From Candidatus Bathyarchaeota archaeon (GTDB taxonomy: Archaea; Thermoproteota; Bathyarchaeia; JAPDIZ01), in contig JAPDIZ010000003.1 in NCBI GenBank assembly GCA_029259355.1, positions 147,710 to 211,709 of the forward strand: 64,000 nucleotides of DNA, written 5' to 3'. Below, in pieces: positions 11,833-57,362 of the stretch (positions within the stretch are counted from its first letter, which is position 1; each line of letters starts with the position of its first letter). The position numbers and the translations under genes are program-made. The notes under the pieces were generated by a model. That model searched no databases, was not told the origin of the DNA, and saw nothing but the letters and a program-made list of their open reading frames with translations.

Positions 11833-11868
11833 GGCGGAGACACCTTATGCGGTGGGGAATTAAAAAAG

Positions 11869-16726: not shown

Positions 16727-18181
16727 TCAGAAAACGATAGCCTTGCTAATAATTTTATTTTCAATTTGCTCCCTAACTCTTCTCTTAAATAGAGCAGCTC
16801 TCCACTTTCGCAAAAGATATTTTAACTGATTGCCCGATTCATTTATACCTCTCGTAATAAGATTATAACTTTCCCAAGGATCTTCCTTTAGATTATACAA
16901 TTCTCTTACCCCGCCATGTATGCAACCGCAATATCTGCAAAAAGCTGACCTTTTTGTTGGAGCTTCTATATACTTCCAATTGAGAGTTCTAATGGCGTAT
17001 TTATCTTGCGTGAAATGTTCCTCCATATACGCGAAGTTTCTAAAATTATCCTTCAAATCTTTATATATGAGGGGAAGCAAACTTTTTCCTTCACACTTAA
17101 GACTCTTTTTCCAATGCTCATTTACTTGACTATTCTCGGAAATTAAATCTAAGATTGTAGGCGCTATATCGACATGTTGAACAATATCTCTTATAACTAA
17201 GCATTTTGGTAAAAATGAACCAGCAATTATCAGAGGTACATGAATAGTAGTATCGTATAATCCATGGTGGTGGAAAAAAATTCCATGCTCTCCAAGACTT
17301 TCGCCATGATCAGAGGTTACTACTATGAGTGTATCTTCAAAAAGGTCCTCAAGTTTGTGCAAGAGTCTTCCTATATGAAAATCAACTGACACCACTGCTG
17401 CATCGTAATTAACTAATATTTTTTCCAGGTTTTGTCTAACACGTAAAAAGTTAATTAATCCTTGAGTTTCAAAACATATTTTCGACCTTTTTTTGAACGA
17501 AAGACCTGTAAATGCTCCCATTTTGTTATATATTGTGGCATAGCGCTTATATAGACATTCATAAAATTCCCGAGGTGCTTTGTAGGGAGCGTGAACATCC
17601 CAATAATGAACTACTATAAAAAATGGTATATTTTCTCTTTTGAACTTCTCAATATAGCTAATCGCGATATCTGTAATTAGATTAGCAGGGGGTTTTTTGA
17701 AAAATGTCAACCAAAAACCTCTAATCAAAGACATAAGTTTAGTATGTTGATGGGGAATTATTTTCAGGAATTTGCGCGATATTTTAATCTGATTTTCCAT
17801 ACGCGAAACCCACGGATCGTGATATATTCCAAACTTTTTTTTGAACCACCTACCTAGGATATTGATCATTATTGTCTTATACCCGATTTTTTCGAGAAGT
17901 TCTGACACAAATGGTATAGACAAAACTCCGCGCATACTCTGAGGCTTAACTCTAGGTCCCTGATTCAGTATTCCATGTGTTGGGAGGTATCGGCCTGTTA
18001 AAATTGAGGTTAAAGAAGGATCTGTAACGTTTGTTGTTGAAAATGCGTTTAAAAATAGCACGCCTCTTGACGCTAATTTATCTAGATTGGGGCTTGTATT
18101 TACTTCATAACCATAACATCCTAAATTACTAGCTCTTAAGGAGTCTATCACTATCAATATAATATTGGGAAGTTTTGACAT
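16727..18181 (-). CDS. Sulfatase-fold (alkaline-phosphatase-superfamily) enzyme lacking the formylglycine motif
   Basis: NIILIVIDSLRASNLGCYGY, NAFSTTNVTDPSLTSILTGRY and VVTSDHGESLGEHG are present. The canonical C/S-x-P-x-R site reads T-D-P-S-L, so Thr sits at the nucleophile position and the Arg is absent. No TM domain. Confidence 0.75.
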   Translation of the reverse strand: MSKLPNIILIVIDSLRASNLGCYGYEVNTSPNLDKLASRGVLFLNAFSTTNVTDPSLTSILTGRYLPTHGILNQGPRVKPQSMRGVLSIPFVSELLEKIGYKTIMINILGRWFKKKFGIYHDPWVSRMENQIKISRKFLKIIPHQHTKLMSLIRGFWLTFFKKPPANLITDIAISYIEKFKRENIPFFIVVHYWDVHAPYKAPREFYECLYKRYATIYNKMGAFTGLSFKKRSKICFETQGLINFLRVRQNLEKILVNYDAAVVSVDFHIGRLLHKLEDLFEDTLIVVTSDHGESLGEHGIFFHHHGLYDTTIHVPLIIAGSFLPKCLVIRDIVQHVDIAPTILDLISENSQVNEHWKKSLKCEGKSLLPLIYKDLKDNFRNFAYMEEHFTQDKYAIRTLNWKYIEAPTKRSAFCRYCGCIHGGVRELYNLKEDPWESYNLITRGINESGNQLKYLLRKWRAALFKRRVREQIENKIISKAIVF

Positions 18182-18275: not shown

Positions 18276-19028
18276 ATGATTATCAACGGACCTCTACGAA
18301 AAGCTAGGGAAAAGATATCCATCGTAATTCCAGCATATAATGAAGCTATGAATCTAAAAGAACTGATACCCAGCCTTGCTGATGTGCTGAGAGATTTGTC
18401 GATAATAGGGGAGATTATCGTTGTTAATGATGGCAGCAAGGATGAAACAGACGATGTTTGTGAAGAGATTATTAATAAATGGCATGCCTGGGGATATGAT
18501 GACTGTGGTATTAAGTTTAGAGTATTGAGACATGAAAAAAATTTGGGAAAAACACAAGCACTATCAACGGGTTTTTATAGCGCTGAGGGCGATTATTTGT
18601 TCCTTTTTGAAGCCGATATGCAATATAATCCAAGAGACCTCATCAGATTTCTTCCTCTACTCAACATAGGTTATGACATTGTCTGCGGATGGCGCCGCCA
18701 TAGAGCAGATCCCCCGCATAAAATAATATTGTCTAAGGTTCAAAACATTATTCAGCGAATTGTTTTTGGAACAAACATTAATGATCATAATGTAGGATTT
18801 ATAGGATATAGGCGAGAAGTTGCACGTATCCTATTCCATCCTAATTTCATAAAAGAGCTAGGCCTGGGAAGAGCTCATCATAGAACAGTTCTAGCATTAG
18901 CGAGATACTTGGGATTCACGATTGATGAAGTACCAGTAAGGCACTATTCACGTAAATGGGGGAAATCAAAGGTCGAAGGATGTAAGACGATTATAGAAAC
19001 GATTAAAGTATTCATAAATTATATGTAA
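18276..19028 (+). CDS. GT2 glycosyltransferase, polyprenyl-phosphate sugar synthase-like
   Basis: ISIVIPAYNEAMNL, VVNDGSKDET and FEADMQYNP are present. It is a close paralog of 22876..23652, with long identical runs such as GWRRHRADPPH and GFIGYRR. Confidence 0.88.
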   Translation: MIINGPLRKAREKISIVIPAYNEAMNLKELIPSLADVLRDLSIIGEIIVVNDGSKDETDDVCEEIINKWHAWGYDDCGIKFRVLRHEKNLGKTQALSTGFYSAEGDYLFLFEADMQYNPRDLIRFLPLLNIGYDIVCGWRRHRADPPHKIILSKVQNIIQRIVFGTNINDHNVGFIGYRREVARILFHPNFIKELGLGRAHHRTVLALARYLGFTIDEVPVRHYSRKWGKSKVEGCKTIIETIKVFINYM

Positions 19029-19094: not shown

Positions 19095-19807
19095 ATGACT
19101 ATAGCCTTAACACGTCTTGACCTAAAGTTTCGAATACATAATGAAAGAGTGTTTAGTATATTTCCTCCGATTAAACTATTTTTCAATAGAAACCCTTTAA
19201 TCAAGTATTTAGAGAGAAAAAGGGCCGCCACTGTTGCTAAGTTATCCAACATTCGTCAAAATTCGCTCAAGCTCGATTTAGGCTGTGGAGACGGATTTAT
19301 TACCAAAGACTTAAGTGGATGTGTAGTAGGCTTAGACCTTTCTAGAAAGGCTCTCCAACTTGCAAAAAGCCTATTTTGTAAAGGATCTAGATTTGATTTC
19401 ATTCTCGGAGAAGCTTCGTCACTTCCGTTTAGGGATGAAGTTTTTGGTGCAGTAGTTTGTAGTGAAGTCTTAGAACATGTCCCCTATCCAGCGAGAACTT
19501 TTGATGAAAAAGTAAGGGTTATGGATAATCAGTCATACCTTATCATCACACTCCCTAAGGAAAGGAACATAAAAATGTGAAACGAATTCTTAAATTACTA
19601 AGGCTATCCAAGATTTTCTTGAGAGAGTTACCAGATGAAGAGATTACAGATAGTTGGCACATAAGTCATATAGAGATTCGGTGGCTAGTCAAAAAACTCA
19701 TAAGAAGCGGGTTAAGACTAAAAGTTCAAGGACGCATCCTATGGTTTTACCCAATTCGATCAATCCTTGTTTTTTACGAAGGCCGAAGATCAAAAGTAAA
19801 GGGCTAG
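19095..19807 (+). pseudogene. Class I SAM methyltransferase split by one frameshift (track ORFs 19095..19580 and 19577..19807)
   Basis: ORF 1 carries LDLGCGDGF, GLDLS, PFRDEVFGAVVCSEVLEHVP and LIITLPKERNIKM*. ORF 2 continues with KRILKLLRL...WHISHIEIRWLVKKLIRSGLRLKV, the expected C-terminal strands. The junction is at the A5 run 19571-19575 (ataaaaatgtga). Confidence 0.7.
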
Positions 19808-21757: not shown

Positions 21758-22879
21758 TTAACCACGCTTCCTAGAAAGCACCCTCCAGCTATTTTTGTTT
21801 CTCCAGCTAACTGAAACTATCTCCAAACCAGCGTTCTTGACCAAACTACACGCTTCATCTTTGGTAAAGTATTGCGCTAATGGGGCGTATAGCAGATCAA
21901 AAACTATGTGTTGCTTATGTCGTAGAGTAAAAGCAGCTATCGATCTGAGGTATTCGCTATTCGGAAGCAGTGCTTTGAAGAAGTCAATGTGAGAAAAACG
22001 TGCGATAATGTCAAGAAACGAAGCTAGGAAAAGCGATAACCAAAGCAATTCTCTAGGAGCTAACCTAGTTGTAATTTTTTTAATATATGGCTCGATGATC
22101 TTTGTCATTAGGACATTGTTTTCAAAACCATATACCCACATGTGGAATAGGCCACCATTTTTCAGAGCACGAACAATTTCCTTGATCGCTTTAGATGGAG
22201 TGGGGATATGATGAATAACCCCTATTGAATATATTAGGTCAAAGACATTCCTAGTTAAAGGAAGAGTGCATAGATCTGCTTGAATTAAGTGTACATTATC
22301 TCTTTCTCCACAAATTTCTTTGGCTACATCGATCGACTGGCTGATATCTACGCCCACAACTTCATCCGCGTAGTGAGCCACTATACACAGGTGTCTGCCC
22401 ATGCCACAACCAGCGTCCATTACTACATTGTCTCTGAAGTCGCTAAGGGTCAGGGGATAAATCCAACTCAAAAACTCTTGAAGATACTCAGGGTGGTATT
22501 CACGGAATTCCATCCACTCGATTCCGAAGTGTTTAATGAGTTTGGCAAGCACATCTTCTTCTACTTTCTCATTGGATATTGAAGGATCGCGCTTAGGAAG
22601 CAACCTAGGTATTCCATTTGTGATGGGGTATACACGACCGCATCCCATGCATTGAAGTAGCCCCTTAGTGACTTCAATTGCCATACACTCTTTGCAATCT
22701 CTTCCCTTTATGGGATTTAGTTGAGCATAGCTACAGATATCCAGATGACGACAAAGCTCTGGCAAGCCCTTCTTGGCATACGAAGAACTTGCATAGATAA
22801 CGGAAGAATTCGTTAAATCGAGATTAAACTTCGAGCCGCATACGGGACATTGAAGAATGTTTAAAAGCCTAAGCTTCAC
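21758..22879 (-). CDS. SAM methyltransferase with an N-terminal Trm112-like zinc-ribbon
   Basis: CPVCGSKF...CMGCGRVYPITNGIPRLL provides four Cys. These are followed by VMDAGCGMGRH, IYSIGVIHHIP and LKNGGLF. The GTG start overlaps the stop of the upstream GT2 gene (GTGA). Confidence 0.82.
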   Translation of the reverse strand: MKLRLLNILQCPVCGSKFNLDLTNSSVIYASSSYAKKGLPELCRHLDICSYAQLNPIKGRDCKECMAIEVTKGLLQCMGCGRVYPITNGIPRLLPKRDPSISNEKVEEDVLAKLIKHFGIEWMEFREYHPEYLQEFLSWIYPLTLSDFRDNVVMDAGCGMGRHLCIVAHYADEVVGVDISQSIDVAKEICGERDNVHLIQADLCTLPLTRNVFDLIYSIGVIHHIPTPSKAIKEIVRALKNGGLFHMWVYGFENNVLMTKIIEPYIKKITTRLAPRELLWLSLFLASFLDIIARFSHIDFFKALLPNSEYLRSIAAFTLRHKQHIVFDLLYAPLAQYFTKDEACSLVKNAGLEIVSVSWRNKNSWRVLSRKRG

Positions 22880-23652
22880 GTTTCATCCTTCCTTAACAAC
22901 CTTGACTTTGACCTATGATAAGATGCCAGAAGTTTTTCCCATTTAAACGTAAACAAGAAATATAGCTTGACAAGAGCTTTAGCAGTTTCTAAGGTAGTTT
23001 TCCATCCACTTATGTATGATTTACCGCTTACGCGAGGATAGTGCCTAACAGAGACTTCATCGATTGTAAAGCCCAAACGTCTAGCAATAGATAGAACCAT
23101 ACGGTGATAACTACGACCCAAACCAATTTCTTCAATAAATTCGGGGTCGAATAGAATTAGCGCAACATCACGTCTGTAACCAATAAATCCAGAGTTATGG
23201 TCGGATAGGTTTGTACCAAACAAGAGTCGCTGAAGCAAGTTTTGCGCCTTTGAGAGGAGTATTCTATGCGGAGGATCTGCACGATGACGTCTCCATCCAC
23301 TAACTATATCATAGCCTATATCCAATAATGGCAGAAACCTGACTATGTCTCGGGGGTCGTATTGAAGGTCTGCTTCGAATAGAAAGCAGTAATCCCCAGA
23401 CGAGGCGTAAATTCCCGAGGAAAATGCCATAGTTTTGCCAAGGTTTCTCTCATGATTAACTACCTTAATGATGTCTTCCCAATTTTTAGCGAAACTTTCA
23501 CAAATCTCTTTGGTGTTATCTGTGCTTCCATCATTTACTAAGATTATCTCGCCATTGATTGAATATCTGTTAAATACTTCAAGAATGTTAGGGACAAGTC
23601 TCTTTAAATTATCAGCTTCGTTGTAGGCAGGAACTATCACTGAAACGCGCAA
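22876..23652 (-). CDS. GT2 glycosyltransferase, polyprenyl-phosphate sugar synthase-like
   Basis: VSVIVPAYNEADNL, LVNDGSTDNT and FEADLQYDP are present. It is a paralog of 18276..19028 in inverted orientation and is the first gene of a GT2 - MTase - AsnB run on the minus strand. Confidence 0.88.
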   Translation of the reverse strand: MRVSVIVPAYNEADNLKRLVPNILEVFNRYSINGEIILVNDGSTDNTKEICESFAKNWEDIIKVVNHERNLGKTMAFSSGIYASSGDYCFLFEADLQYDPRDIVRFLPLLDIGYDIVSGWRRHRADPPHRILLSKAQNLLQRLLFGTNLSDHNSGFIGYRRDVALILFDPEFIEEIGLGRSYHRMVLSIARRLGFTIDEVSVRHYPRVSGKSYISGWKTTLETAKALVKLYFLFTFKWEKLLASYHRSKSRLLRKDET

Positions 23653-23764: not shown

Positions 23765-24022
23765 TTTCAGCTGAAGGCAGAGTTTTTACCGACAAAAGGA
23801 GAGATAACAACCGAAGGACAGTGGTTTTTTGAGCTATATACTAAGCTTTTGGAAAAAGAGGCCGTGAAAGTAGCTTCAAAGGCTTTGTTCTTCGATAGTT
23901 TTAACCAGCTACAGGTCATCGATTTAGGCTGTAGGTTAGAGAAAAAGATAATAGTATTGCCTACAATTGATGGAAATTTTTCAATAAGAAGAAAGGCACT
24001 ATTCATTAAGAAGCTTATATGA
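23765..24022 (+). pseudogene. Possible relic of a SAM methyltransferase N-terminal region
   Basis: An open frame with no start codon reads ...EGQWFFELYTKLLEKEAVKVASKALFFDSFNQLQVIDLGCRLEKKIIVLP...*. VIDLGC resembles motif I, but the GxG continuation is lost. The track ORF 23767..24039 on the opposite strand is probably its shadow. Confidence 0.3.
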
Positions 24023-24323
24023 AAAGAGAAGTTTGACATAACTCATCATATCTACTGGGGATTAGCTTTGAATGTAGAATGCATACAACAATGGATTTGC
24101 TTCAGCATGGCATCAATCATCCACTGACCCACTCTTTTAAAAAATACTTTACTAATAGCCGTTTTAGAATATTATATACCTCAAAGTAGAAACAAGAATA
24201 GTTGGAGAATTTTGTTAAGAAAACCAAACCCTTAGGAAAAAGTAACTCTTTACCTGTAAATGATGAGTGCTCGCTTACTTGAGCAGATTAAAGAAACACT
24301 TCTGTAAACCTCTTTTTGAATTT

Positions 24324-25616
24324 TTAATTTTCATATAGACAAGACAACCATTCGTAACCCTTTAAATCTTTTGCACATCGACAAAGGTTCCAAATCTTAT
24401 CGAATTTCTCAAAAGCGATTCTTTGGTGAAGAGGTGTCGGAATTACAAATTCCCCCCTTTTGAATGAGTAAATAAGGGGGGAGCCGTAGAGATTTGTCGA
24501 AAAGATTGCAAGAAGTATAAGTGCTGCATATAGAAGAGTTGAGAAACCTTTCTTATTTTGAAAAATTTTAGTAATTCTCTTTAGTCCATAGGCAGTTGCT
24601 GTAAGGAAGAAAGGCGTAAATTGCACCATATATTGATCAAAGTGTGTGGGAATGAAAAATATATAAAAGAGGTAGCAGTAAATAGCCCAGATAAAAAGGA
24701 AATATCTTCTTTCGACAAATAAGTGTATCATGCCGTATAGCATCAATACAAAACATATCAGACCAACGCCTAGAGATAGGGGAAGCCATAGAAGTATGTC
24801 GCTGTGAAAAAATGGAGGAAAAACATGACTTTTAGAAATGTGTCCCCTATACCAGTAAATTCTGTTAACGATTGGATAAATGGGGTGGCCGTAACGTATC
24901 AGACAAATGAAGGCAAACGGTAGAGAAGTTACTAAGAAAGAGAATAGTAAAGCAAATTTTTCCTGAAAACTAAGCCTTCTGATGTTTATAATGATCCAGA
25001 GTAATAATGGGAGTGTTAAGTAGGGAGCGCTTTCTTTAGCCCACATAGTTAATGCAAAAGACATTCCTACTAGAGATGTAAGCACGTACTTTCGTTTTTC
25101 GTCACTAGTGTAGCTTACGAATAGGATCGATGCAAGCCCAAAAGTTAGTATTGTAAAAGCAGCTAGCATAACATCGTTTATTAGTCTATGAGCATACCAC
25201 CCTATGTGCCAGTTCCACCCAACCAACAGAGCTGCTAAATACCCAATTTCTTCGTCCCCAAGGTAATGTTTGCCCACAAGATAAGCTCCTAGCATCAATA
25301 TAATCATAGAAAATAGACCCCAGCTACAGAGCACGTAGAGAAAGCTCGGAAAACCGAATAGCTTGTATAAAACGCCAATGTAAAGAGGCAACATTATCAT
25401 TTTGTCATCAACGATGGGGTATTGAAAAGCATTCCTCGATATATTCTCCACTAGATAAACACCAGTCGATATTATCCAATATTCGTCAGGGTAGCCTCCT
25501 CTCGGAAACCCTCCATAAAACCAAGCTAGAATGAAATGATAGACAATCGTTGCAAGGAGCAAGACCTTATACAAGACGCTCTTTGCATTACCTAAACTTA
25601 ATGCGCCGTGAAACAT
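24324..25616 (-). CDS. Polytopic membrane protein, family C copy 2; GT-C-like
   Basis: 430 aa with YPDEYW, LFGFPSFLY, VGWNWHIGWYAHRLINDVM and MWAKE. It is a paralog of 6164 and 53867. Confidence 0.8.
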   Translation of the reverse strand: MFHGALSLGNAKSVLYKVLLLATIVYHFILAWFYGGFPRGGYPDEYWIISTGVYLVENISRNAFQYPIVDDKMIMLPLYIGVLYKLFGFPSFLYVLCSWGLFSMIILMLGAYLVGKHYLGDEEIGYLAALLVGWNWHIGWYAHRLINDVMLAAFTILTFGLASILFVSYTSDEKRKYVLTSLVGMSFALTMWAKESAPYLTLPLLLWIIINIRRLSFQEKFALLFSFLVTSLPFAFICLIRYGHPIYPIVNRIYWYRGHISKSHVFPPFFHSDILLWLPLSLGVGLICFVLMLYGMIHLFVERRYFLFIWAIYCYLFYIFFIPTHFDQYMVQFTPFFLTATAYGLKRITKIFQNKKGFSTLLYAALILLAIFSTNLYGSPLIYSFKRGEFVIPTPLHQRIAFEKFDKIWNLCRCAKDLKGYEWLSCLYEN

Positions 25617-25829
25617 TTTTCATATAAGTCTGTCATGTTCCTCGCTTTTAAGGCTAAGCCTCCATCATTTTATCCAACAAATAGGAGCCACCACAAAACC
25701 ATACAAAAAATTATCACATGTATGTAATTGGTATTGAGCGCTTCATATCTACTCAAAACCAATCTCTTCACAAACTCGATATATTTGATGCTACACAATA
25801 TGTCACTCAAATATAACTTGAATCTTTAT

Positions 25830-27254
25830 TTATGGCTGTTTACGCTGTTGAAAACCTTCGCCCATTTGTTTATGCGCTAAGAAGGAACTTTTTTCTGCAG
25901 GAAAAATTAGATATAAAAGCGATGTGAAAGAAGAAATTATTAGCACATAATGAAGATAAAGCATTACGTTAAAAAGTAGAGGCCTACTGATTTTATCAAT
26001 TCCCTCTAAGTAAGAGATTATTTCACAAATCCTCCACGGGTTACTCCACGACAATATTTTTGGGTATGCAAAGCCCAATAAGACAGTTCTTATGTCGTAG
26101 AAGTTGATTTTAAGGTCTTCAAAATATATAAAAATGAGGGGATGAATTTGATTAATTGATACTACACATAGAAGGAGAACTAATAAACAAATATATCGAG
26201 AAATATATGGAGAGAGATTCGAAGCCCGTAAGTACGCGAACATCTCACGAAGGCCTAGAGCTTCCATTAATAGAAGAGAAGGCATGAAAATAGGGGGATA
26301 CCAGTCACAATAATATGCTACCACAGTAGAAGTCCCGCAAAACATAACGATGAAAAAGAGTAGTGCATAAAGATAGTTTTGTTCTCTTTTCTTTAGGAAA
26401 TACATAATTGAGATGCATACTCCATAGATAAAAATGACAAAATTAGGAAAGGGCAAGAAAAAATGTATGCGCTTGATATAAGAAAGATACATCCAATAAC
26501 CCTCCCTATAAAATGTTGTACTACGAATCTGCCATCCTCCTCCCATTAAATTTAACATAGGTCCAAAGGGAGAACCTGTGTGTACTGTATTGAGGTAAAG
26601 CCACGGAAGTAGCGTAAATATAATTGCAATAACGCCTAAGCTAAATTTTTCTATTTTCTCCATACTAAGATTTTTTCTTGTAAGAACCAAAAACAATATA
26701 TAAAAAATGAAGAGGAAAGAGGCAAAATATTCTGCCTCAAAAGCTAGAGCAGAAAAAATTCCTAATAGAGGGAACCAGTACCATTTGGAATTCTCTTGCA
26801 AGCACTTCCAAAATATATACGTAGAAATCAACATAAGTGTTGAACAAATAGTCGTTATGCGAGTTTGATTACTAAAATACCAATAGATATAGGATAAGCC
26901 AAGAAGTACGCTAAAGTAAAACCCTACTTCTTCATCAAACAGATCCGAACCTAAAACATATGCAAAAATAATAGCTAGCAAATTTATTAACGGAAAAGTA
27001 TAGAGAGAAAGTTGCACTGAATATTCGACAGGACAACAAAATGCATCGCATATACGAACAATTAAAGAAATAACGGATTGAATGAAAAGTTCTCCCCTAG
27101 TATCTAGCTGCGTTAAGGTTACGTCTATGTTATAGCCAGCTAAATAATAGCCAGCCAGTATTCTTTCTGGCCCCTCTCCACCTATATGCACATAAGGCAA
27201 TAAAGCTATGTGAGCAACAACTATGAGTAGCAACAAAAACTTACGCCACCACAT
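25830..27254 (-). CDS. Polytopic membrane protein, family E copy 1; GT-C (PMT_2-like) candidate
   Basis: 474 aa with AGYYLAGYNIDV, INLLAIIFAYVLGSDLFDEEVGFYFSVLL and GIFSALAFEAEY. It is a paralog of 55252..56640 (GMYLAGYDIPYD, MLFDRRVGLVAAAL, ALAFLTRY). Confidence 0.78.
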   Translation of the reverse strand: MWWRKFLLLLIVVAHIALLPYVHIGGEGPERILAGYYLAGYNIDVTLTQLDTRGELFIQSVISLIVRICDAFCCPVEYSVQLSLYTFPLINLLAIIFAYVLGSDLFDEEVGFYFSVLLGLSYIYWYFSNQTRITTICSTLMLISTYIFWKCLQENSKWYWFPLLGIFSALAFEAEYFASFLFIFYILFLVLTRKNLSMEKIEKFSLGVIAIIFTLLPWLYLNTVHTGSPFGPMLNLMGGGWQIRSTTFYREGYWMYLSYIKRIHFFLPFPNFVIFIYGVCISIMYFLKKREQNYLYALLFFIVMFCGTSTVVAYYCDWYPPIFMPSLLLMEALGLREMFAYLRASNLSPYISRYICLLVLLLCVVSINQIHPLIFIYFEDLKINFYDIRTVLLGFAYPKILSWSNPWRICEIISYLEGIDKISRPLLFNVMLYLHYVLIISSFTSLLYLIFPAEKSSFLAHKQMGEGFQQRKQP

Positions 27255-27342
27255 AGTAGTATGATTTTAACACCTAAATAAAATATTAAGGATTCGTTGT
27301 TTTGATTAAGACTTACCTAGGCTTTAGGAGCAAAAAGCCACA

Positions 27343-28031
27343 TGATGGAGCTTACAATCTATGAAGCTAAACTATAATGGGTACTCTACCAGAGATAACC
27401 AAGTTTGCCTCACTTATTCCTTTATTAATAGCTACTTTGACAACATTAGATAGTGTATATAGAGCAACATTTTGACCAATATATGAAAGATAATTTTCAA
27501 AGGAGTAGCCTTAGGCAACCAGATTTCTTAGTTAAAACAGGTTATTCCTCTATCATAGCCTAACAAATAGATGAGATGCCTTAGAACCTCACAAAACGAT
27601 CCAAGAACTTAAGCCAGATTTAGTAATCGTGTTAAGAGACACAAACCCCACACTAGCAAGCGTGTCGACAGCCTCAAAACTGCATATCTGAATCATCCAT
27701 ATAGAAGTAGGTCTAAGATGATTCGATAAATCGTTACCTAACCTAAAGAAATAAACAGGATCTTAGTTGATCATATGTCTACCCTCTTCTTCACCTCTTC
27801 AAAATAGCCGAAGAAAATTTAAGAAAAGAGAGACTTTGTAGAATTAAGAGGCTTGTGGCTCGTTATCCCGAGCTATCCGTTATCCCATACGTGTTTTTAT
27901 TATACGTGTCCATCCCCATACGTGTTATACACCAGAAGTAAATACCAGATCAAGGATGTGAGAAGTATTCTTTTCACTCTCACAGTAAACTTAGAGAAAT
28001 TTATATTTCTTGCTCACCCAAGACTTTCGTA
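27343..28031 (+). pseudogene. Heavily decayed UDP-GlcNAc 2-epimerase (wecB-like) pseudogene
   Basis: Fragments in shifting frames, with stops between them, follow the order of the intact copy at 3844. GTLPEITKFASLIPLL matches GTRPEIIKLSSIV. QELKPDLVIVLRDTNPTLASVSTASKL matches KPDIVVVEGDTNSALGAALAA. IIHIEVGLR matches AHVEAGCRS. PKEINRILVDHMSTLFF matches PEEINRRLISQCATLNF. FIFLAHPRLS matches IVFPIHPRTR. Confidence 0.7.
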
Positions 28032-28373
28032 GCTACCTGGTAATTATAAATTTTAAGTGTAGAGTAGAAAAAGAGAAGATGTCCATATCTTTAGGTTACA
28101 TAATAGCATGAATGGTAATGACGCTAAAAAAGGAGTTGAGAACGAGCTTTAGTGTGATTATACGAGTTTAACAAGATATGTGGGTAGTTTAAGATCTTAC
28201 AGCGATCATTATCTATTAAGGGAGATAAGAAATATGCAAAAATTCTGTTATAAAGTAAGGACTAACTTTAATTTTATACTATAAAAATTACGATACTCGA
28301 CGCTCGTACAAGATGTTAAATCAAAAAATTTAAAACAACAAAGAAGCAGTTTACCTACAACTCGTGATTAGGG

Positions 28374-30155
28374 TTGTCGAATCAAATTTTTTCAAGACAC
28401 ATAGATACCAGAAGCATTAGGAGAAGTACTGCTATCCTTTCTGTAGTAATGATTGCTTTTGGCTACATCCTTCTATTTACGCCCTTCTATACATTTGGTC
28501 TCCTCATACTATTTGGCTTAATATTGTACCATTATTTCTTGCAAAAAATGACGGTATATTCTCTTTTCAGGAAATTTTTTCTAATTTATGTTCTGATTCT
28601 ACTATCTATCGCTACGATTCTCAACAACTTCTATAATGAAATCAATAATGCCATAGTATCTCTTGGTTACACTTCAGATATCACTTATCTTTTCCTCCCC
28701 AACCTATCCTCTACCGGTTTTCTCAGGCTTTTTCCAAAAGAATTACGCATCCTCATCATTTTTTTCATAAATTTGTTTTTATTTTCCGCCATTATTTTTG
28801 TATTCTATCCAAATAGGTTTATCTCCATTAGAAAGGTGAAGTGGACTATAGATGCGGTTAAAATAAGTATTAAGAGAGAATTTATGCAAATCTTAACCAC
28901 ATACCTATTAGTTTTTTCTTCTATATGCTTAGTAGCTCTTACAATTATTAAATTGACTTCGGGCTTAGTGTTGCCTTCATACATCACCTTCCTCTTAAAA
29001 GTAGTTTATTACCTGCGGAATACGACGGTTATTATACCTTATATAGTCCTTCCACTACTCGTGTTAAAACCAAACATCTTCCGAATGTTTCACCAATTTC
29101 TTGATGAAACTATATTATCTTGGAAATCTACAAAGCTAAAGCTTTATCACTTCGTAATTATTCTCATAATTTCTTGGTTCTTTTATCTTAATTTTGCAGT
29201 AACACCTGTTGATAACCCCAATCTCTGTATGTTTGATGATAGATTGTATCATCATATCTGGGTATATATGAGGGAAGGAGTTAATTTTTATGAGGCATGG
29301 AAAGTATTCTTTCCATCGAATACAGAAGCCTATATGCACTGGTCTCTTCTTTTCTATCTATGGGCAGTTTGTAAAACAGTACCTTGCGTCAAAGTAGAGT
29401 ATTTTCTTCTCAGTACAGTAGCTGTGGTTAGTTCGTTTTACTTAACAAAAAAGCTTACTGAGAATTCGTTTATAGGAGTGCTTTCGATGCTATACATTAT
29501 GTGCTTTTACTCGAGAGGGTTTTTCTGGTTTATGTTGGATCAGTGGGCTGCTGTTCCTCTATTGATAGGCTTGATGTTTTTAGCTTATGGAAAACACTCG
29601 CTATCGGCTACATTTTTTGTTTTGGCGTTTTTCTTTAAAGAAACTACTGTTATTCCACTGTTTGTAGCGACGCTGCTTTACTCCATACCTTCTGTGAAGA
29701 GGATAGCTTTAGGAGATAGATCTAGGGAAAGCCTTGAGAGAACATCGTATTTAATTGGATTTTTATTGATTCTGGTATTTATGATGATACATTCAGCAAC
29801 TTACACCGGGTCAGAGTATGCGCAAAAATTCCTCAAAATATTTGCTCCACACTATTTTGTGCACCAACTTTCTTGGTTTATGTATCCAGTAGGAATCATC
29901 AACTTCTCTCTAGCCATCACTGGTGTTTTCCTCATTAAAGACGATAATAGGAAGAAACTCTTTCTAATATTGGCAATAATCTCTACTCATTTATTATTCT
30001 TTGCATACAATAAACCATCTGAGGGCTCCGCAAGAAACTGTGTAGCAGCCATTGTAATTGAATACATACTGGCGCCCATAGGGCTGAAAATAACAGAGGA
30101 AAGAGTGGCTGAGCTAGTCCTAGGCAATTCTCAGATAAAAGTAGCAAAGAGATGA
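28374..30155 (+). CDS. Polytopic membrane protein, family A copy 2; function unknown
   Basis: 593 aa with a TTG start. Motifs: DNPNLCMFDDRLYHHIW, EGVNFYEAW, CKTVPCVKVEYF, SRGFFWFMLDQW, FFFKETT, FAPHYFVHQLSWFMYPVGIINFSLA, SEGSARN. Confidence 0.85.
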   Translation: MSNQIFSRHIDTRSIRRSTAILSVVMIAFGYILLFTPFYTFGLLILFGLILYHYFLQKMTVYSLFRKFFLIYVLILLSIATILNNFYNEINNAIVSLGYTSDITYLFLPNLSSTGFLRLFPKELRILIIFFINLFLFSAIIFVFYPNRFISIRKVKWTIDAVKISIKREFMQILTTYLLVFSSICLVALTIIKLTSGLVLPSYITFLLKVVYYLRNTTVIIPYIVLPLLVLKPNIFRMFHQFLDETILSWKSTKLKLYHFVIILIISWFFYLNFAVTPVDNPNLCMFDDRLYHHIWVYMREGVNFYEAWKVFFPSNTEAYMHWSLLFYLWAVCKTVPCVKVEYFLLSTVAVVSSFYLTKKLTENSFIGVLSMLYIMCFYSRGFFWFMLDQWAAVPLLIGLMFLAYGKHSLSATFFVLAFFFKETTVIPLFVATLLYSIPSVKRIALGDRSRESLERTSYLIGFLLILVFMMIHSATYTGSEYAQKFLKIFAPHYFVHQLSWFMYPVGIINFSLAITGVFLIKDDNRKKLFLILAIISTHLLFFAYNKPSEGSARNCVAAIVIEYILAPIGLKITEERVAELVLGNSQIKVAKR

Positions 30156-30211
30156 ATTCGGAAAAATATGTACCAAAAAGGGTTTAAATTACGCTAAACA
30201 GAGGATAAGGC

Positions 30212-31912
30212 GTGAGAATACTAGCCTTTATTTTTCAAAGATTTTTCCTATTTCCTATTGATTTGTACAGTATTTTTAGGATGGTGGCTATCGCTTTCAT
30301 CTTAACTACCTCATCTATGCTAAGTTTGGCATTTATTGCCGGAAGCGACGTTAGGTATAAGGTATTTGTTGTTGCGGAAGGAGAAGATGAGTTCCAAGAA
30401 GTTAAGCAGGTTTTGGAAAAATCCCTTGAAAACGTAGTGGTTTACGATATCCGCTATGAAAACAACGAACTCGCTACGCTTACGGAGCTTAACTGCGTGA
30501 GAACGATTGTTTTAGTATACGATGGCGACATTCAATTCCTGCTCCAAAGAAATGTCCTTATTAGCTTGGAGAGGGTAGATGAATGCGTGCTTTTTTCCAG
30601 AGGTGAGCTACCTCCCGAGGAGGTTCTGCAAATCCTTGACAGTCTACTGAGATCTAGGCTTAAGGTTGCGAAGAGCTACTCTGAATTAATCAGCAAGCTC
30701 CCCGTGTATAGGCGCAGAAGCTTCTTCAGCATAAACTGGGATACCGAGACATACTTCCTTCTCGTTAGAGCTGTCGGCGTCGCTTCTCTGCTCACCATCT
30801 TCTTTGGCGCTGCTCTCTTGAGTATAACGTGTTTTTTGCTGAGAGCCCTTGTCAGAGATGAGCTAGCTTTCTTTTCGGCATCGCTTACCTCGGCATTCTT
30901 GATCTTTACCACCATACAGATGGCTTACGTCGTATGTAGCTCCGTTTTGGAAATCCCCTTAGGACTGCACTGCACAAAAATAGGATCTAGCCCGTGGAAT
31001 TCGCTTACCATCATAGGTATGTTAGGGCCTTTTGGCGGAGGAACTTTTCCAAGACTTTTCGCTGGGTTAACTGGCTTTTCGCTAAGCACAATCGCTATCA
31101 CGTTAAGAAGAGAAGCTGATGAAGCTGTATGCTATCTACCCTCTCTAAGGACTAGACTTTTCATAGCTTCCTTGGTTCTGGTGGGAGCATACTTTGCGTA
31201 TACCATTTCATCGCTTAATGAACTCATTAACCAGCCCATTGTTGGGGAAGTACTTTGCCGCAAAATGATAAACTCATTCGCCATCTACCAAGATTTGCTA
31301 GTTGGTAAGGCCGTTCCGTCGAGGGGGATAATCCTATACTACATCGGCGTCTCTCTGTTTTGCGCCCTACTCTTAGCGAGGTCTAAGGCGTTCTCAGCAG
31401 CTTCGCCTATAGCGGCTGTTTTGATTGCTTGGGGGTTGATGAGGGTGGGTAATCTCAACCTTGAGCAAGCTATGTGCAGCTCGATTATCGGAGTGATGCT
31501 TGGCTTTGCAACGTTTCTGCTATGCGCAGCGTACCTCAGCCTCCTAAATAATTTTCACAGACTTTCGAGCACGGATGCTAAGAAGCTTCTACACAGCTCT
31601 GAGTTTAGACGAGAAAGCATCGTCTTAACGTGTATAGCGCTTCTCTACTGTACGGCTTGGAGTAAGCTTAGCGGTACTTTACTCCCACTTTTCGCGCTAT
31701 GTACAACATACTTTCTCTTGCGCACCAACTTGAGGAAAAAGCCCTACATAGCAGCGATGTGGATGATTCCAGCAGCTGCTTCTATGCTGCTACTAATGCT
31801 GTGTATACCTACTGAGGTCTTGTTTCCTGCTATTCTCAGCGCATGCGCTGCTAGATGCTTTGACACATATCATAAACCATTCAAAAGACTAAGCTCTGTA
31901 CTGTGCAGTTAG
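30212..31912 (+). CDS. Membrane protein, family B copy 1: N-terminal anchor, a soluble domain of about 150 aa, then a polytopic domain; function unknown
   Basis: 566 aa with a GTG start. Motifs: KVFVVAEGEDEF...LNCVRTIVLVYDG, LEIPLGLHCTK, LGPFGGGTFPRLFAGL, AWGLMRVGNLNLEQ. All are shared with 50251..52011. It lies 56 nt downstream of family A copy 2. Confidence 0.85.
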   Translation: MRILAFIFQRFFLFPIDLYSIFRMVAIAFILTTSSMLSLAFIAGSDVRYKVFVVAEGEDEFQEVKQVLEKSLENVVVYDIRYENNELATLTELNCVRTIVLVYDGDIQFLLQRNVLISLERVDECVLFSRGELPPEEVLQILDSLLRSRLKVAKSYSELISKLPVYRRRSFFSINWDTETYFLLVRAVGVASLLTIFFGAALLSITCFLLRALVRDELAFFSASLTSAFLIFTTIQMAYVVCSSVLEIPLGLHCTKIGSSPWNSLTIIGMLGPFGGGTFPRLFAGLTGFSLSTIAITLRREADEAVCYLPSLRTRLFIASLVLVGAYFAYTISSLNELINQPIVGEVLCRKMINSFAIYQDLLVGKAVPSRGIILYYIGVSLFCALLLARSKAFSAASPIAAVLIAWGLMRVGNLNLEQAMCSSIIGVMLGFATFLLCAAYLSLLNNFHRLSSTDAKKLLHSSEFRRESIVLTCIALLYCTAWSKLSGTLLPLFALCTTYFLLRTNLRKKPYIAAMWMIPAAASMLLLMLCIPTEVLFPAILSACAARCFDTYHKPFKRLSSVLCS

Positions 31913-32889: not shown

Positions 32890-34380
32890 ATGTTGCTTGG
32901 ATCGACCATAGCAAGACTATTTCAAATTATTTACGTAATCTTTGTTGTACGCCTTCTTGGTCCACAAGACTACGGTCTTCTCGCGCTTGTACTCGCCGTA
33001 ACTGGAGTTATTACTTCAGTAATAGATCCTCACGTAGGTCTCGCTACCGTTAAGCTTTACACAGAGAAGCAAGACCAACACTTTCTATACATCGCCCTCA
33101 TTTTCTATATTTGTGTAGGAGTAGCTTCAGCAGTTGTAATCCTTCTCTTTGGTGATATTGTAATTGCTAACCTAGCTGGGTCGCAAGCTAGCGAACGTCG
33201 TTTTGACCTTGTATTGATCTTTATTAGTCTTTTGATAATATTGATAACTACTAATAGTTTGTATTCAACACTCTTCGAATCCTTCTTTTTATTCAGCTAT
33301 GAGGCGCTTATGATAGCTACTAGACGCATACTCATCTGTATACTTGCAGTAGTAGCTCTGTTTTGGGGATACGGGCTCTTAGGGGTATTTGCCGCAATAA
33401 TCGCCGGGTACTTGATTCCCCTTATAATCCTTATGCCAATAGCTTACGAAATACTAAAAGCGCAAATTAAGACAAGGATTCGTGTAGGCATTCTGTGGAG
33501 CAAATTTGTCGAAGTTCTACAGTTTGGCATTCTTGCCTATATCGCTACCGTCATGTATCAATTTTACACATCATCCGACGTTATCTTAGTTGGATACTTT
33601 AGATCGCTCTGGGATGTTGGACAATATAGCGCAGCACTTCGCTTAGTTAATGTTGTTTTGCTTATCCCATCAGCGTTTATCTCGGTATTAATGCCAGTTG
33701 TGTCGAGGATTTCTGGAGAAAAAACTCTAAGTGAGCGCGAGATATCATCCATAGTAGGACTTACGCTTAAGTATACAATGATCCTAGCAGTACCCTTTTG
33801 CATGGTTTTATCTGCCAATTCTTTCCTAGTGATAACAAGCCTTTTTGGGATTAGTTATCAATATTCGACGGAAGTGCTTCCCCTATTATCAATTTTTGCA
33901 ATATTATTAGCATCTTACATCGTTTTCGACTCTACTTTGGTGGGGTTGGGTAAGCTCATCGAGAGGATATTAGTTTCGCTGACCATGTTAATATGTGGAC
34001 TGATTCTGCACATAGTTCTAATACCTACGATAGGCATATACGGGGCAGCGCTATCTATGCTTCTCTCAGCTGGAATTGGTACTCTCTCTGCTATGTTCGC
34101 TCTTCGCTTAACACCCTCAAATCTCCTGGCTGCTAACGTTGCCAAATTCGCGATAGCCTTAACTCCCTTAGCCCTTTCATCGCTAATAGCAACTACTCTC
34201 ATGAACAGCTTAGCAGGTATTTGTTTGTTAACGATCTCTTTAGCAGGCTATGCTTTGCTGCTTTTGCTTCTAGGAGTAATCGATGAAAAAGATCTCGATA
34301 ACTTCTCAAAAGTATCCATGCTTTCCCCAATTGCTAAATTTGGGAAGAGCGTTCGGAAGAAAGTTTTGAAAAGAGGCTGA
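32890..34380 (+). CDS. wzx: Wzx-like polysaccharide/oligosaccharide flippase (MOP superfamily); the 5' end is probably frameshifted
   Basis: About 12-14 TM segments, with FVVRLLGPQDYGLLALVLAV near the N-terminus. The frame is open upstream (..SGKALATGSFAMLLGST..) with no start codon. An ATG at 32801 lies one frame off, across a G5 run at 32810-32814. Adding one G gives MNNGGKSAIRQQIDSQEWSSGKALATGSFAMLLG. Confidence 0.82.
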   Translation: MLLGSTIARLFQIIYVIFVVRLLGPQDYGLLALVLAVTGVITSVIDPHVGLATVKLYTEKQDQHFLYIALIFYICVGVASAVVILLFGDIVIANLAGSQASERRFDLVLIFISLLIILITTNSLYSTLFESFFLFSYEALMIATRRILICILAVVALFWGYGLLGVFAAIIAGYLIPLIILMPIAYEILKAQIKTRIRVGILWSKFVEVLQFGILAYIATVMYQFYTSSDVILVGYFRSLWDVGQYSAALRLVNVVLLIPSAFISVLMPVVSRISGEKTLSEREISSIVGLTLKYTMILAVPFCMVLSANSFLVITSLFGISYQYSTEVLPLLSIFAILLASYIVFDSTLVGLGKLIERILVSLTMLICGLILHIVLIPTIGIYGAALSMLLSAGIGTLSAMFALRLTPSNLLAANVAKFAIALTPLALSSLIATTLMNSLAGICLLTISLAGYALLLLLLGVIDEKDLDNFSKVSMLSPIAKFGKSVRKKVLKRG

Positions 34381-34387
34381 TCCCAGA

Positions 34388-36346
34388 ATGCGATTCGTAT
34401 TAACCATTAGCAACTTATGCGCAGTTAGCGATGCTGAAAAATTTTGCTACGGTTCAAGAGAGATTCTCAGACGCATTGGCATTTCTTGGATTGAAGCCCT
34501 AGTTAATGATACGAATGACTTTATAAGCAAAATACACTCCCTAAATGATACAATTCTTGGATTCTTCTTGCTCGAAAGAGATCCACTTTTACCTGATTTA
34601 ATAAGAGCTATTGAAGAATGTAGGAAAACCTCCCTCATATACCTATTCCAAGAAACGCCCAGAATTTTCGTAAGCTCTCCGAAAATACTGAGATGGAAAC
34701 TTTTTAATAAAATGAAAGAATTTCCAATAATCTTTCAAGCAAAAACCTGTAATATCTCAAGTTATTGCAAGAATTCCGAATTCTTTTTGGAAGTTGCAGA
34801 ATTATTAGATTTAGAGCGAAAAAAATTGGGAACTTGCGTTGCTAGCGCACGTAAGCTAAATCCTCCCTACGTATTTTATTGCCTATTTGGCTTTGAGCTA
34901 CCCCTAGTAGTAGCTGATTTTTTGAGCGGCTCTGCTCAGCTAACGCTCGCTAAGCGAACGCATAACTCAAGATTACTATGCCAAGGAAGTTTGCTAATGA
35001 AGTACAAGCTTAACGTCCAACCTCTCGTCGATGAGCTGTCTAGGATTGTTCACGCGTCATTAGTAACACAGCTTGGTCACTTGAAGATCCCTCTTTTAAC
35101 AAAAGCCATATGGCCACCTAACAAGATAGCTTGCGTGTGTCTAACACACGATGTAGATAAGCTAACTCCTCACTGGTCTCAACTGTTGAAAAGAACAAAG
35201 CTTTACACAGCAAAGAGAAGACTTGCTGAAATAATCCCCTCGATTTTATCATCACTCCTCATAGGCCTTTCTAGAGCTCAGCACAGAATAAGGTCTAGGG
35301 CAAAAAATGGATTTGATGCTCTGAAGTTTTTCCCCTATAGCTTACTTAGGAAATTCCAAGATATTTTATACGTTGGAGGATTTGAAAAATACATGGATGT
35401 TGAGAAAAAAAATGGCGCAAGCTCTACATTTTTCATTCTGATAAACAAGAGCGATATGGACAGCAACTATGACATAAACTCTCCAGCACTTGCGCTGATT
35501 TTGCGGGACATTATACAGAGAGGCTGGGAAGTATCCTTACATGCAAGTTATTTCTCCCTTGATTTGGAGCAAATTCTTCAAGAAGAGAAAAAATTGCTTG
35601 AAGCAGTTATTAAGGAAAGAGTTGCGGGTGTCAGACAACACTACTTTAGGTTTAATCCTCCGAATACGTGGATAGCACAAAGTAATGCAGGCTTTACTTA
35701 CGATACAACACCCTACTTCCCTGACGAAGTAGGTTTCTACTTCAGCACATGCTTACCTTTCTTCGCTTACGATTATGTAAACAACAGAGAGCTAGACTTA
35801 GTTGAAATTCCATTATCTATTAACGATACCACACTCTTTCACTATATGAAGCTGAACATCGAAGAAGCTTTTCACCGTTGTAAGGAACTTATTGATACAA
35901 TTTATGATCATATGGGGGTTTTAGTAATTAACTGGCATATGCGCGCCTCTCATAACGACGATTTTCCAAGGTGGTTTTACCTTTACGAAAAGATCTTAGA
36001 ATATGCTTGTCGATCCAATGTATGGGTGCCTACATGCAGAGAGGTTGCGCAGTGGTGGAAGATACGAGATAAAACCAAAGTGCGAGAATTCATCTTTGGT
36101 GATGGAGTACTGAAAGCGACGATCGATTTGCCAGATATGTGCGAAGAAATCGCCTTTGAGCTAGTTATACCGAGTGGTATGAAAGTACGAAGAGCCTACT
36201 TGTTGCACAGAGATCTAGTCAAGGAGATTAGTGTTAGCAAAGTTGGGGAGATTCATGCAGAATTCGGTGTTTTTCAGAAGTATTCCCTTTCGCTCCATAG
36301 ACCGCAGGTAGGTGTTAGCGAATTGGTGGTTAAAATTGAAAGATGA
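34388..36346 (+). CDS. Two-domain protein: an uncharacterised N-terminal region of about 240 aa plus a polysaccharide deacetylase (CE4-like) domain
   Basis: 652 aa. CVCLTHDVDKL, SSTFFIL, GWEVSLHASY and AGVRQHYFRF fit the D-D / H-H metal-site layout of CE4 deacetylases. I recognise no motif in the N-terminal region. Confidence 0.7.
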   Translation: MRFVLTISNLCAVSDAEKFCYGSREILRRIGISWIEALVNDTNDFISKIHSLNDTILGFFLLERDPLLPDLIRAIEECRKTSLIYLFQETPRIFVSSPKILRWKLFNKMKEFPIIFQAKTCNISSYCKNSEFFLEVAELLDLERKKLGTCVASARKLNPPYVFYCLFGFELPLVVADFLSGSAQLTLAKRTHNSRLLCQGSLLMKYKLNVQPLVDELSRIVHASLVTQLGHLKIPLLTKAIWPPNKIACVCLTHDVDKLTPHWSQLLKRTKLYTAKRRLAEIIPSILSSLLIGLSRAQHRIRSRAKNGFDALKFFPYSLLRKFQDILYVGGFEKYMDVEKKNGASSTFFILINKSDMDSNYDINSPALALILRDIIQRGWEVSLHASYFSLDLEQILQEEKKLLEAVIKERVAGVRQHYFRFNPPNTWIAQSNAGFTYDTTPYFPDEVGFYFSTCLPFFAYDYVNNRELDLVEIPLSINDTTLFHYMKLNIEEAFHRCKELIDTIYDHMGVLVINWHMRASHNDDFPRWFYLYEKILEYACRSNVWVPTCREVAQWWKIRDKTKVREFIFGDGVLKATIDLPDMCEEIAFELVIPSGMKVRRAYLLHRDLVKEISVSKVGEIHAEFGVFQKYSLSLHRPQVGVSELVVKIER

Positions 36347-57018: not shown

Positions 57019-57327
57019 CTAAGTTAGCTGTATGATGTGGTTGCTTGATTTCTTGAGGTAGTGTTTGGCTTCTGTTTTTGTTAGTAGGTGTATTTCGAAT
57101 GGGTGGTGTGGTGGGAGGTTTAGCTTTTCCTCGATTATTAGCTTGATTCGGCTTCTGTCTGCGGGTTTTTCCGGAACTCTATCCGATACCACCAATACGT
57201 CGACGTCGCTTGATGCTACGTAGTCTCCTCTTGCTACGCTTCCAACTACGTATACCTTGGCATCTGGCAAAAGCTCAGCTACTTCTTGAGCTATCTTCTC
57301 CACCCACTTCCTCCAGTTTTTGAGCAT
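57019..57327 (-). CDS. Minimal nucleotidyltransferase (MNT), antitoxin-type partner of the adjacent HEPN protein
   Basis: 102 aa. VYVVGSVARGDYVASSDVDVLVV carries the G-S...D-x-D polymerase-beta-type NTase motif. Confidence 0.85.
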   Translation of the reverse strand: MLKNWRKWVEKIAQEVAELLPDAKVYVVGSVARGDYVASSDVDVLVVSDRVPEKPADRSRIKLIIEEKLNLPPHHPFEIHLLTKTEAKHYLKKSSNHIIQLT

Positions 57328-57362
57328 GTTTGCTCTGGAGAGGAGTGTATCGATGTATGTGC

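Follow-up and report, generated by a model that had tools for sequence, protein, structure and literature searches.

Separable gene pairs and a putative new GT-C branch in a 64-kb cell-surface glycan island of a probably archaeal genome

The Glycan Island and Its Repeated Gene Set

The window analyzed here, a stretch of about 64 kb, is as a whole one large cell-surface glycan island. Within it, four families of membrane protein genes, named A, B, C, and E, recur in sets. The original prediction took them for a four-gene module, present twice in different arrangements together with a partial third set, and proposed alternative or serial cassettes for building or decorating an extracytoplasmic glycan. 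The repeated set is real, but its status as a fixed unit is not supported: it separates into an E→C pair and an A/B pair. The explanation that we favor, with somewhat better than even confidence, is a surface-glycan island carrying 13 extracytoplasmic GT-C-type genes, in which A is a new GT-C branch and the separable E→C and A/B units are shuffled between relatives.

All of the open reading frames (ORFs) named in the prediction lie where it had placed them, on the same strands (Table 1). Set 1 (C1, E1, A1, B1) is divergent and set 2 (B2, A3, C2, E2) is convergent, as claimed, and the partial set 3 consists of C3 and A2. The wecB relic is likewise found in the 1.1-kb spacer of set 1, as a frameshifted tblastn match in two reading frames with 45–48% identity to residues 91–153 of the intact WecB of the window. 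Paralogue families were established by all-vs-all blastp of the 42 window ORFs. Paralogy of the repeated set holds for C (C1-C2 48% identity, C1-C3 37%, family range 35–48%), for A (A1-A2 52%, A1-A3 38%, range over the five copies 34–52%), and for B (B1-B2 32%), but not in the same way for E, since E1 and E2 are only 21% identical (E 8e-11) and do not group in a tree. The earlier observation is therefore partly confirmed, being mostly right, yet incomplete: A4, A5, and three further PMT_2-like genes had been overlooked.

How far does such clustering exceed chance? When the order of the 42 genes was shuffled 200,000 times, a pair of four-gene runs made up of exactly A, B, C, and E turned up with a frequency of 0.0011; the corresponding values are 0.048 for both B genes adjoining an A and 0.017 for both E genes adjoining a C. 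These low frequencies place the clustering above a random gene order, although a gene-order shuffle cannot tell functional linkage from shared ancestry or from the local density of glycan genes. None of the window copies of the module genes shows an inactivating change; every copy keeps its catalytic-type motifs, so there is no sign of an inactivated module.

Table 1. Position of the main genes, gene relics, and neighboring features in the window.
Feature	Position	Strand	Assignment	Remarks
C1	24324-25616	-	PMT_2-type GT-C	Pfam PMT_2 28.0 bits; PDEYW first-loop motif (D44 E45)
E1	25830-27254	-	PMT_2-type GT-C	Pfam PMT_2 37.8 bits; upstream of C1, same strand, 213-bp gap
wecB relic	27611-27804	+	wecB-like UDP-GlcNAc 2-epimerase	Frameshifted, ~63 codons
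A1	28374-30155	+	Putative GT-C with N-terminal domain of ~7 transmembrane (TM) helices	Subfamily I
B1	30212-31912	+	Orphan polytopic membrane protein	
B2	50251-52011	+	Second B copy	
A3	52100-53851	+	A family, subfamily I	88 bp downstream of B2
C2	53867-55138	-	PMT_2-type GT-C	Pfam PMT_2 25.5 bits, just under cutoff; convergent with A3 (15-bp gap)
E2	55252-56640	-	PMT_2-type GT-C	Pfam PMT_2 59.9 bits; upstream of C2
C3	6164-7465	-	Third C-family member	Pfam PMT_2 49.9 bits
A2	8053-9783	-	A family, subfamily I	Sister of A1; upstream of C3, same strand; no B nearby
A4	59463-61199	+	A family, subfamily II	Orthologue in locus L076 (P0007), 58% identical
A5	61269-63011	+	A family, subfamily II	Orthologues in L076 (13418-15160, 52% identical) and L077 (P0008, 41%)
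PMT_2-like gene	1604-2935	+	All-vs-all blastp, Pfam	
PMT_2-like gene	13441-14808	-	All-vs-all blastp, Pfam	
PMT_2-like gene	14793-16352		All-vs-all blastp, Pfam	
GT2 synthase	22876-23652	-	Polyprenyl-phosphate sugar synthase, GtrB/ArnC/DPMS-like	Pfam Glycos_transf_2; 0.7 kb from C1
GT2 paralogue	18276-19028		Paralogue of 22876 synthase (blastp)	
GT2 paralogue	3120-3812		Paralogue of 22876 synthase (blastp)	
Wzx	32890-34380	+	Wzx/MOP-type flippase	Pfam Polysacc_synt_3, Polysacc_synt
Intact WecB	3844-5184			
Methyltransferase relic	45655-45935	+	Class-I methyltransferase fragments	In an otherwise empty 0.9-kb spacer
615-aa protein	42327-44174	-	Unclassified membrane protein	~13 helices
Phosphodiesterase	11869-13455	+	Type-I phosphodiesterase	
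Sulfatase	16727-18181	-	Sulfatase family	
VimE-like gene	34388-36346	+	VimE-like deacetylase domain	652 aa
HEPN/nucleotidyltransferase pair	57019-57713	-	Small, toxin-antitoxin-like gene pair	Between E2 and the GT4 gene at 57909
Last window ORF	63222-63950	-	C-terminal third of a 656-658-aa protein	

The C and E Families

C and E are GT-C enzymes, as had been proposed, by their matches to the Pfam model PMT_2 (PF13231; gathering threshold 26.1 bits). The profiles of the two families are homologous to one another (hhalign 98%, E 2e-13), and the acidic first-loop motif that the prediction had described for C, P-D-E-[YE]-W, is invariant in all three copies. Neighbor joining of 12 PMT_2 proteins puts E2 together with its orthologues from two related loci, L076 and L077 (bootstrap 100); E1 stands apart, loosely nearer the C clade. 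Altogether 13 of the 42 genes of the window are of GT-C type, eight of them PMT_2-type and five A-type. Two of the additional PMT_2-like genes (at 1604 and 13441) are distant polytopic paralogues of each other (27.5% identity, E 1e-32), one with a weak PMT_2 match, and form a clade of their own among the PMT_2-like genes.

Paired GT-C paralogues are described as forming obligate dimers (PMC12705809), a situation that the adjacent E→C paralogue pairs of the island resemble. It is possible, by analogy, that the products of an E→C pair assemble into a heterodimer like Pmt1-Pmt2 or EmbA-EmbB.

A, a Divergent GT-C Family

The prediction had treated A and B as two unknown families. This still applies to B, which remains unclassified, but not to A, itself a divergent GT-C family by its PMT_2 profile match and its conserved motifs. 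The first copy, A1, probably starts at 28449 according to a database gene call of 568 aa. It is a very rare family. When 1.84 billion representative proteins were searched exhaustively by HMMER, with the five paralogues as query, only 21 proteins were obtained: the window copies, four outsiders at or near full length (P0007, P0008, P0009, and P0011), and about a dozen proteins of 300–480 aa. Word-indexed protein searches with A and B, including a three-sequence B profile, returned only the window's own proteins, and exact-sequence look-ups with the B proteins of the window matched no record. Pattern scans detected no relatives of B, A, or C in GTDB genomes, nor of B or A in JGI metagenomes, and sequence searches of the PDB with A, an A profile, B, and E2 gave nothing meaningful.

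The short homologues match only profile positions ~257–570 of A. Because they start at the core, the C-terminal 340 residues are an independent unit to which the first ~250 residues, with ~7 helices, are an addition. This N-terminal domain reached less than 1% in hhalign against everything tested. An origin of the N-terminal half as a duplicate of the C-terminal half was considered and rejected (hhalign probability 0.1%). The core, in contrast, can be placed: a profile of the 21 sequences aligns to a pooled 12-sequence PMT_2 profile with an hhalign probability of 92.2% (E 6e-7). The alignment is collinear over 254 columns (306 in greedy mode) and positions DD288-289 of A on the PDE of C and the F-F-K-E of A (K422 E423) on the W-A-K-E of C. 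One short homologue of the core, P0013, sits among GT2 and methyltransferase genes.

The motifs are strongly conserved among the 21 sequences. D288 is found in 17 of the 18 that are ungapped at this position, [DE]389, W391, and [KR]422 in 21/21, E423 in 19/21, R554 in 17/21 (with a lysine in one more), and P568 in 14/21, the last two forming R-x13-P; D288-D289 is invariant in all nine full-length members. The DD motif follows helix 7 in full-length A, but helix 1 in the short homologues. The five copies contain 13–17 hydrophobic segments, and the alignment-averaged profile indicates ~16 TM helices, against a minimum of 8 expected of a GT-C enzyme. By the positive-inside rule a single consistent topology is obtained, which would have the N-terminus inside, the K/R-rich loops 148–172, 359–363, 443–454, and 522–527 inside, and all four motifs outside, with the DD motif in the outside loop 278–338. 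GT-C enzymes are characterized by DxD, DD, or DE in external loop (EL) 1, directly behind the first core helix; EL2 has an acidic or polar pattern, EL3 contains a basic residue, and the last helix cluster carries R/K-x4-14-P (PMC6801728). The motifs of A correspond to all four patterns. The best Foldseek matches of an AlphaFold2 (AF2) model of A are STT3 (probability 1.0, E 0.06, TM 0.30), DPY19, and PIGU, all of them GT-C folds, none reaching E <= 0.001.

We consider it highly probable that A is a GT-C transferase. As far as its sequence can tell, A forms a branch of the GT-C enzymes that is both new and very rare, with a PMT_2-like core placed behind an extra ~7-helix N-terminal domain. It resembles the PMT_2/ArnT-like enzymes (CAZy GT39/GT83-type), of which AglS of Haloferax volcanii is an archaeal representative, in that the core aligns, with the acidic EL1 and K-E motifs in register; unlike C and E, which match the model directly, A stays below the Pfam model, and its additional ~250 residues set it apart.

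B, an Orphan Membrane Protein

B begins with a basic N-terminus and one TM helix, followed by a flavodoxin/REC-like alpha/beta domain (residues ~48–165) and ~10 TM helices. It matches nothing in Pfam or NCBIfam (E <= 0.1) or in the PDB. Only three members are known, the sole one outside the window being a 453-aa protein in locus L079 (6882–8243) with 24–26% identity. The AF2 model of B is confident for residues 48–165 only (overall pLDDT 42), and Foldseek relates this domain to generic folds of the CpaE-N, flavodoxin, REC, and B12-binding types (TMt 0.56–0.6); the receiver aspartates are not conserved. In the helical part, conserved loop motifs can be recognized (CSxxxxxPLxLH, LGPFxxG..R, SRGI, and MRxG), and no internal repeat was found in the membrane part. 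Matches of the model to G protein-coupled receptors (GPCRs) were dismissed as noise, and a relationship of B to A, C, E, Wzx, or the 615-aa membrane protein was rejected (hhalign probability <1%).

Comparison with Related Loci

Does the four-gene set travel as a unit? The clearest answer comes from a close relative, L077 (ERZ25515408 NODE_23), whose DNA is 75–92% identical to the window across the GT4 gene at 48840, E2, the HEPN/nucleotidyltransferase pair, and the GT4 gene at 57909. In L077 the orthologues of the first GT4 gene (81% aa identity), C2 (62%), and E2 (72%) are contiguous, with a GT4-C gap of only 94 bp, whereas in the window the GT4 gene and C2 are separated by the 3.9-kb B2-A3 pair, which is missing in L077. 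B-A therefore behaves as a two-gene insertion or deletion. Its GC content is 0.37–0.38, compared with 0.476 and 0.429 in its neighbors, and no flanking repeats were seen by eye at the borders of the indel. Two further loci break the set in other ways. In L076, the orthologue of E2 (53%) is flanked by an A gene on either side (58 and 52% identical to A4 and A5), and the single C-like gene lies at a distance of 4 kb. The distant contig L079 has A and B, with no PMT_2 gene found within 12 kb.

The phylogenies also disagree with block duplication. C1 and C2 are sisters to the exclusion of C3 (bootstrap 99), so that the C tree reads ((set 1, set 2), set 3), while A1 and A2 are sisters (bootstrap 100) to the exclusion of A3 (81), giving ((set 1, set 3), set 2). 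This incongruence, at 81–100% bootstrap, contradicts the proposal of alternative or serial cassettes derived from a duplicated block, and the distance between E1 and E2 described above points in the same direction. In addition, the two sets do not share gene order or orientation, and A occurs three times without B; a search of the window outside the called ORFs revealed no relic of B or E. It could still be argued that C-E-A-B is one functional four-gene cassette in duplicated alternative versions, each making a variant of the same glycan and used alternatively or serially: one window holds two complete sets and one partial set, their arrangement is rare among the shuffles, every copy is intact with conserved motifs, and two of the neighborhoods, C-A and A-B, recur elsewhere (see below). 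Given L076, L077, L079, and the trees, we regard this as improbable.

Two neighborhoods do recur. Both B genes of the window have an A gene on their own strand at a distance of 56–88 bp. L079 contains one A-like gene (P0009) and one B-like gene, 3 kb apart within a cluster of GT2, DegT, epimerase, and methyltransferase genes; their proteins are 24–31% identical to the window copies. A1, A2, A3, and P0009 form one clade (bootstrap 91), three of whose four members are linked to B; the clade of A4 and A5 with their L076 and L077 orthologues is never adjacent to B. C and A are adjacent in sets 2 and 3, and the pairing returns on L163, a 1.9-kb contig of a different sample, where an A-like gene stands next to a divergently oriented C-like gene (33% identical). 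B would thus be, judging by gene neighborhood, a genetically linked partner of the subfamily-I A enzymes.

The same neighborhoods might be mere by-products of a dense, recombining glycan island, with no functional relation between the genes. Such an island is rich in paralogues, its gene relics (wecB and a methyltransferase) attest to turnover, its GC content is mosaic, indels separate close relatives, and the sets differ in orientation and gene order. What this does not readily explain is the tight, same-strand spacing of both B copies to A, the proximity of the sole external B to the sole A of a contig so divergent in sequence, the renewed pairing of C-like and A-like genes on a short contig from another sample, and the low shuffle frequencies of all three arrangements. 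Absence of any functional relation is accordingly rated as unlikely, though less so than the fixed four-gene cassette.

The slot downstream of the GT4 gene at 57909 is occupied differently in each of the related loci. The window has two A genes there, L076 has A-PMT_2(E)-A (10001–15160), and L077 has a single A (10001–11692). A identity at this slot is 38–58% (~40% for the L077 gene) against 90% for the flanking GT4, which makes A the hypervariable element of the slot. Genes for Wzy, ligases, and flippases in glycan loci tend to be hypervariable, to encode polytopic proteins, and to escape Pfam. A and/or B could then be a Wzy-like polymerase, a ligase, or a lipid-linked-glycan flippase rather than a single-sugar transferase, since the divergence of A is a pattern typical of serotype-specific Wzy/Wzx genes, both proteins have 11–16 TM helices and no Pfam match, and B matches nothing at all. 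For A, however, a polyprenyl-phosphate-sugar transferase is indicated by the presence of all four GT-C(A) motifs and by the match to the PMT_2 profile. No match to Wzy_C or related models in Pfam or NCBIfam was obtained for A or B at E <= 0.1; Wzy proteins often escape these models, so that a polymerase-like B is compatible with the lack of a match. We hold this alternative to be the least probable of those discussed here, and retain the view of A as a divergent GT-C transferase.

A3 is found in identical copies on two independent assemblies, L081 and L082. The B2-A3-C2 segment as a whole occurs in both (ERZ25515360 and ERZ25515786) at 99.9–100% identity, under accession numbers near that of L077, so that related samples may contain both the cassette-plus and the cassette-minus variant. 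The HEPN/nucleotidyltransferase pair is the most conserved stretch of the comparison, with ~92% DNA identity in L076 and L077. The last ORF of the window is 62–63% identical to the C-terminal third of a 656–658-aa protein, lacking a Pfam match, that follows A in L076 (15337–17313) and L077 (11730–13700). Either its frame is interrupted upstream or the gene runs past the end of the window.

Other Genes of the Island and the Host

The island also encodes five GT2 and five GT4 glycosyltransferases and a range of sugar-modifying enzymes: WecB, two Gfo/MocA oxidoreductases, a DegT aminotransferase, a hexapeptide acyltransferase, and an AsnB-type amidotransferase. Several methyltransferases, a sulfatase, a phosphodiesterase, and a VimE-like deacetylase are further members. 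The GT2 synthase next to C1 has as best PDB matches GtrB sll0501 (5e-20), ArnC (7e-19), and the Pyrococcus synthase of Dol-P-Man (dolichol-phosphate-linked mannose), DPMS (8e-15), and is probably the source of lipid-linked donors for the GT-C enzymes. The Wzx gene encodes the sole recognizable candidate flippase for lipid-linked sugars within the window. A 90-aa ORF (23767–24039) was considered as a GtrA-like flippase and rejected, having no TM helices and an implausible sequence. Together, the GtrB/ArnC/DPMS-like GT2 genes, the Wzx-type flippase, and the sugar-modifying enzymes fit the proposed building or decorating of an extracytoplasmic glycan. The earlier interpretation is hence half right: correct on extracytoplasmic glycan work by GT-C enzymes, and wrong on the two unknown families and on the fixed module.

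Several neighboring features deserve mention. The second gene relic consists of class-I methyltransferase fragments that are 37–46% identical to residues 60–151 of the protein encoded at 19095–19580. The 615-aa membrane protein matches nothing in Pfam or NCBIfam, and its profile resembles none of those of A, B, C, E, and Wzx. From the phosphodiesterase, sulfatase-family, and VimE-like genes it may be surmised that the product contains sugars with phospho or sulfo modifications as well as de-N-acetylated ones.

GC content per gene ranges from 0.34 to 0.52 across the window; it is 0.351 in A1 and 0.451 in the adjacent B1, and 0.43–0.52 at the right-hand end (57.9–64 kb). This gene-by-gene change suggests a mosaic of different sources. 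Among 185,579 species genomes, the closest relatives of AsnB and WecB are found in archaeal metagenome-assembled genomes, at only 41–50% identity, which makes the host probably an archaeon with no near relative among sequenced genomes. Neither a tRNA nor an Rfam family was detected in the window or in the related loci, which leaves no RNA marker for taxonomy.

Proposed Mechanism and Known Systems

How might the island work? By analogy with the AglD/AglR/AglS and Gtr-type systems compared below, cytoplasmic GtrB/DPMS-like GT2 synthases (22876, 18276, and 3120) would load single sugars onto dolichol phosphate, and the lipid-linked sugars would then be flipped across the membrane by the Wzx-type protein or by another one. 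At the outer face, C, E, and A would each transfer one specific sugar to a growing glycan on a protein or lipid carrier, with the E→C pairs possibly acting as heterodimers. B would be a partner of the subfamily-I A proteins and might serve as a flippase, an acceptor-presenting subunit, or a polymerase. Gain, loss, and shuffling of cassettes between close relatives would change the type of glycan, as in serotype conversion, and so diversify the cell surface. A more specific version, which we put forward only tentatively, sees A and B as a hitherto undescribed two-protein extracytoplasmic glycosylation unit: the N-terminal 7-helix domain of A would dock with B, B would contribute a function without precedent in GT-C systems (flipping of dolichol-phosphate sugars by a new class of protein, for instance, or selection of the acceptor or control of chain length as a subunit), and the pair would move as a glycan-type-changing cassette of an uncultured archaeal lineage.

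Several points weigh against the explanation of the island as a GT-C-based system with separable units. As for its content, neither a GtrA/SMR-type flippase (among ORFs of at least 80 aa) nor an AglB/STT3 gene was recognized in the window, and the archaeal assignment depends on two glycan-pathway genes, a class prone to horizontal transfer. As for A, its sequences reach no Pfam or NCBIfam model even at E 0.1; hhalign gives no significant match when it is compared with just the C or just the E family instead of the pooled profile (3–14%; C 13.6%); its topology was worked out by hand from hydropathy and the positive-inside rule rather than with a dedicated predictor; its AF2 model is of medium quality (pLDDT 64, pTM 0.70); and structural support is weak (Foldseek E 0.06, TM ~0.3). 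Finally, only five external loci are informative, two of them shorter than 2.6 kb, so that co-occurrence statistics are thin, and the gene-order shuffle (P = 0.001) leaves room for a genuine four-way linkage in this genome.

The island can be compared with three kinds of known system. The Agl pathway of Haloferax volcanii includes AglD, AglR, and AglS, the last being a Dol-P-mannose mannosyltransferase (PMC3871713). The island likewise has polyprenyl-phosphate sugar synthases and a Wzx-type protein; unlike the Agl clusters described, it carries far more GT-C-type genes, 13 in 64 kb. In three-component systems, such as GtrB-GtrA-Gtr* of enterobacteria or ORF15-ORF14-ORF12/GT136 of Citrobacter, a synthase and a flippase work with a GT-C enzyme that is the strain-variable specificity part (PMC11127046). 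A GtrB-like GT2, a MOP-family flippase, and variable GT-C genes are all present in the island, but it has no recognized GtrA/SMR flippase and no one-to-one trios (three synthases, one flippase, and 13 GT-C-type genes). Its host, probably archaeal, would use dolichol rather than undecaprenol, and B has no counterpart in those systems. Multi-GT-C assembly lines, such as mycobacterial EmbA/EmbB/EmbC and Aft, fungal Pmt1-Pmt2, or ALG3/9/12/6/8/10 in the lumen of the endoplasmic reticulum, also employ many GT-C paralogues serially on one extracytoplasmic glycan; beyond the superfamily, the island shows no sequence relation to them, and dimers in the island would be purely conjectural.

The extracytoplasmic glycosylation carried out by GT-C enzymes has been charted well in eukaryotes, in mycobacteria, and in a few model archaea. 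The presence of 13 GT-C-type genes in a single island suggests that an uncultured archaeon assembles much of a surface glycan outside the cell from dolichol-phosphate sugars. With its N-terminal 7-helix extension, A would represent a new GT-C architecture that current domain databases do not detect. The only known genomic partner of B is A, and as the lipid-linked-sugar flippases of GT-C pathways are largely unproven, B thus becomes a concrete flippase candidate. The cassette indel between near-identical flanks provides a natural strain pair for linking genotype to glycan structure, and may inform our understanding of virus-host recognition.

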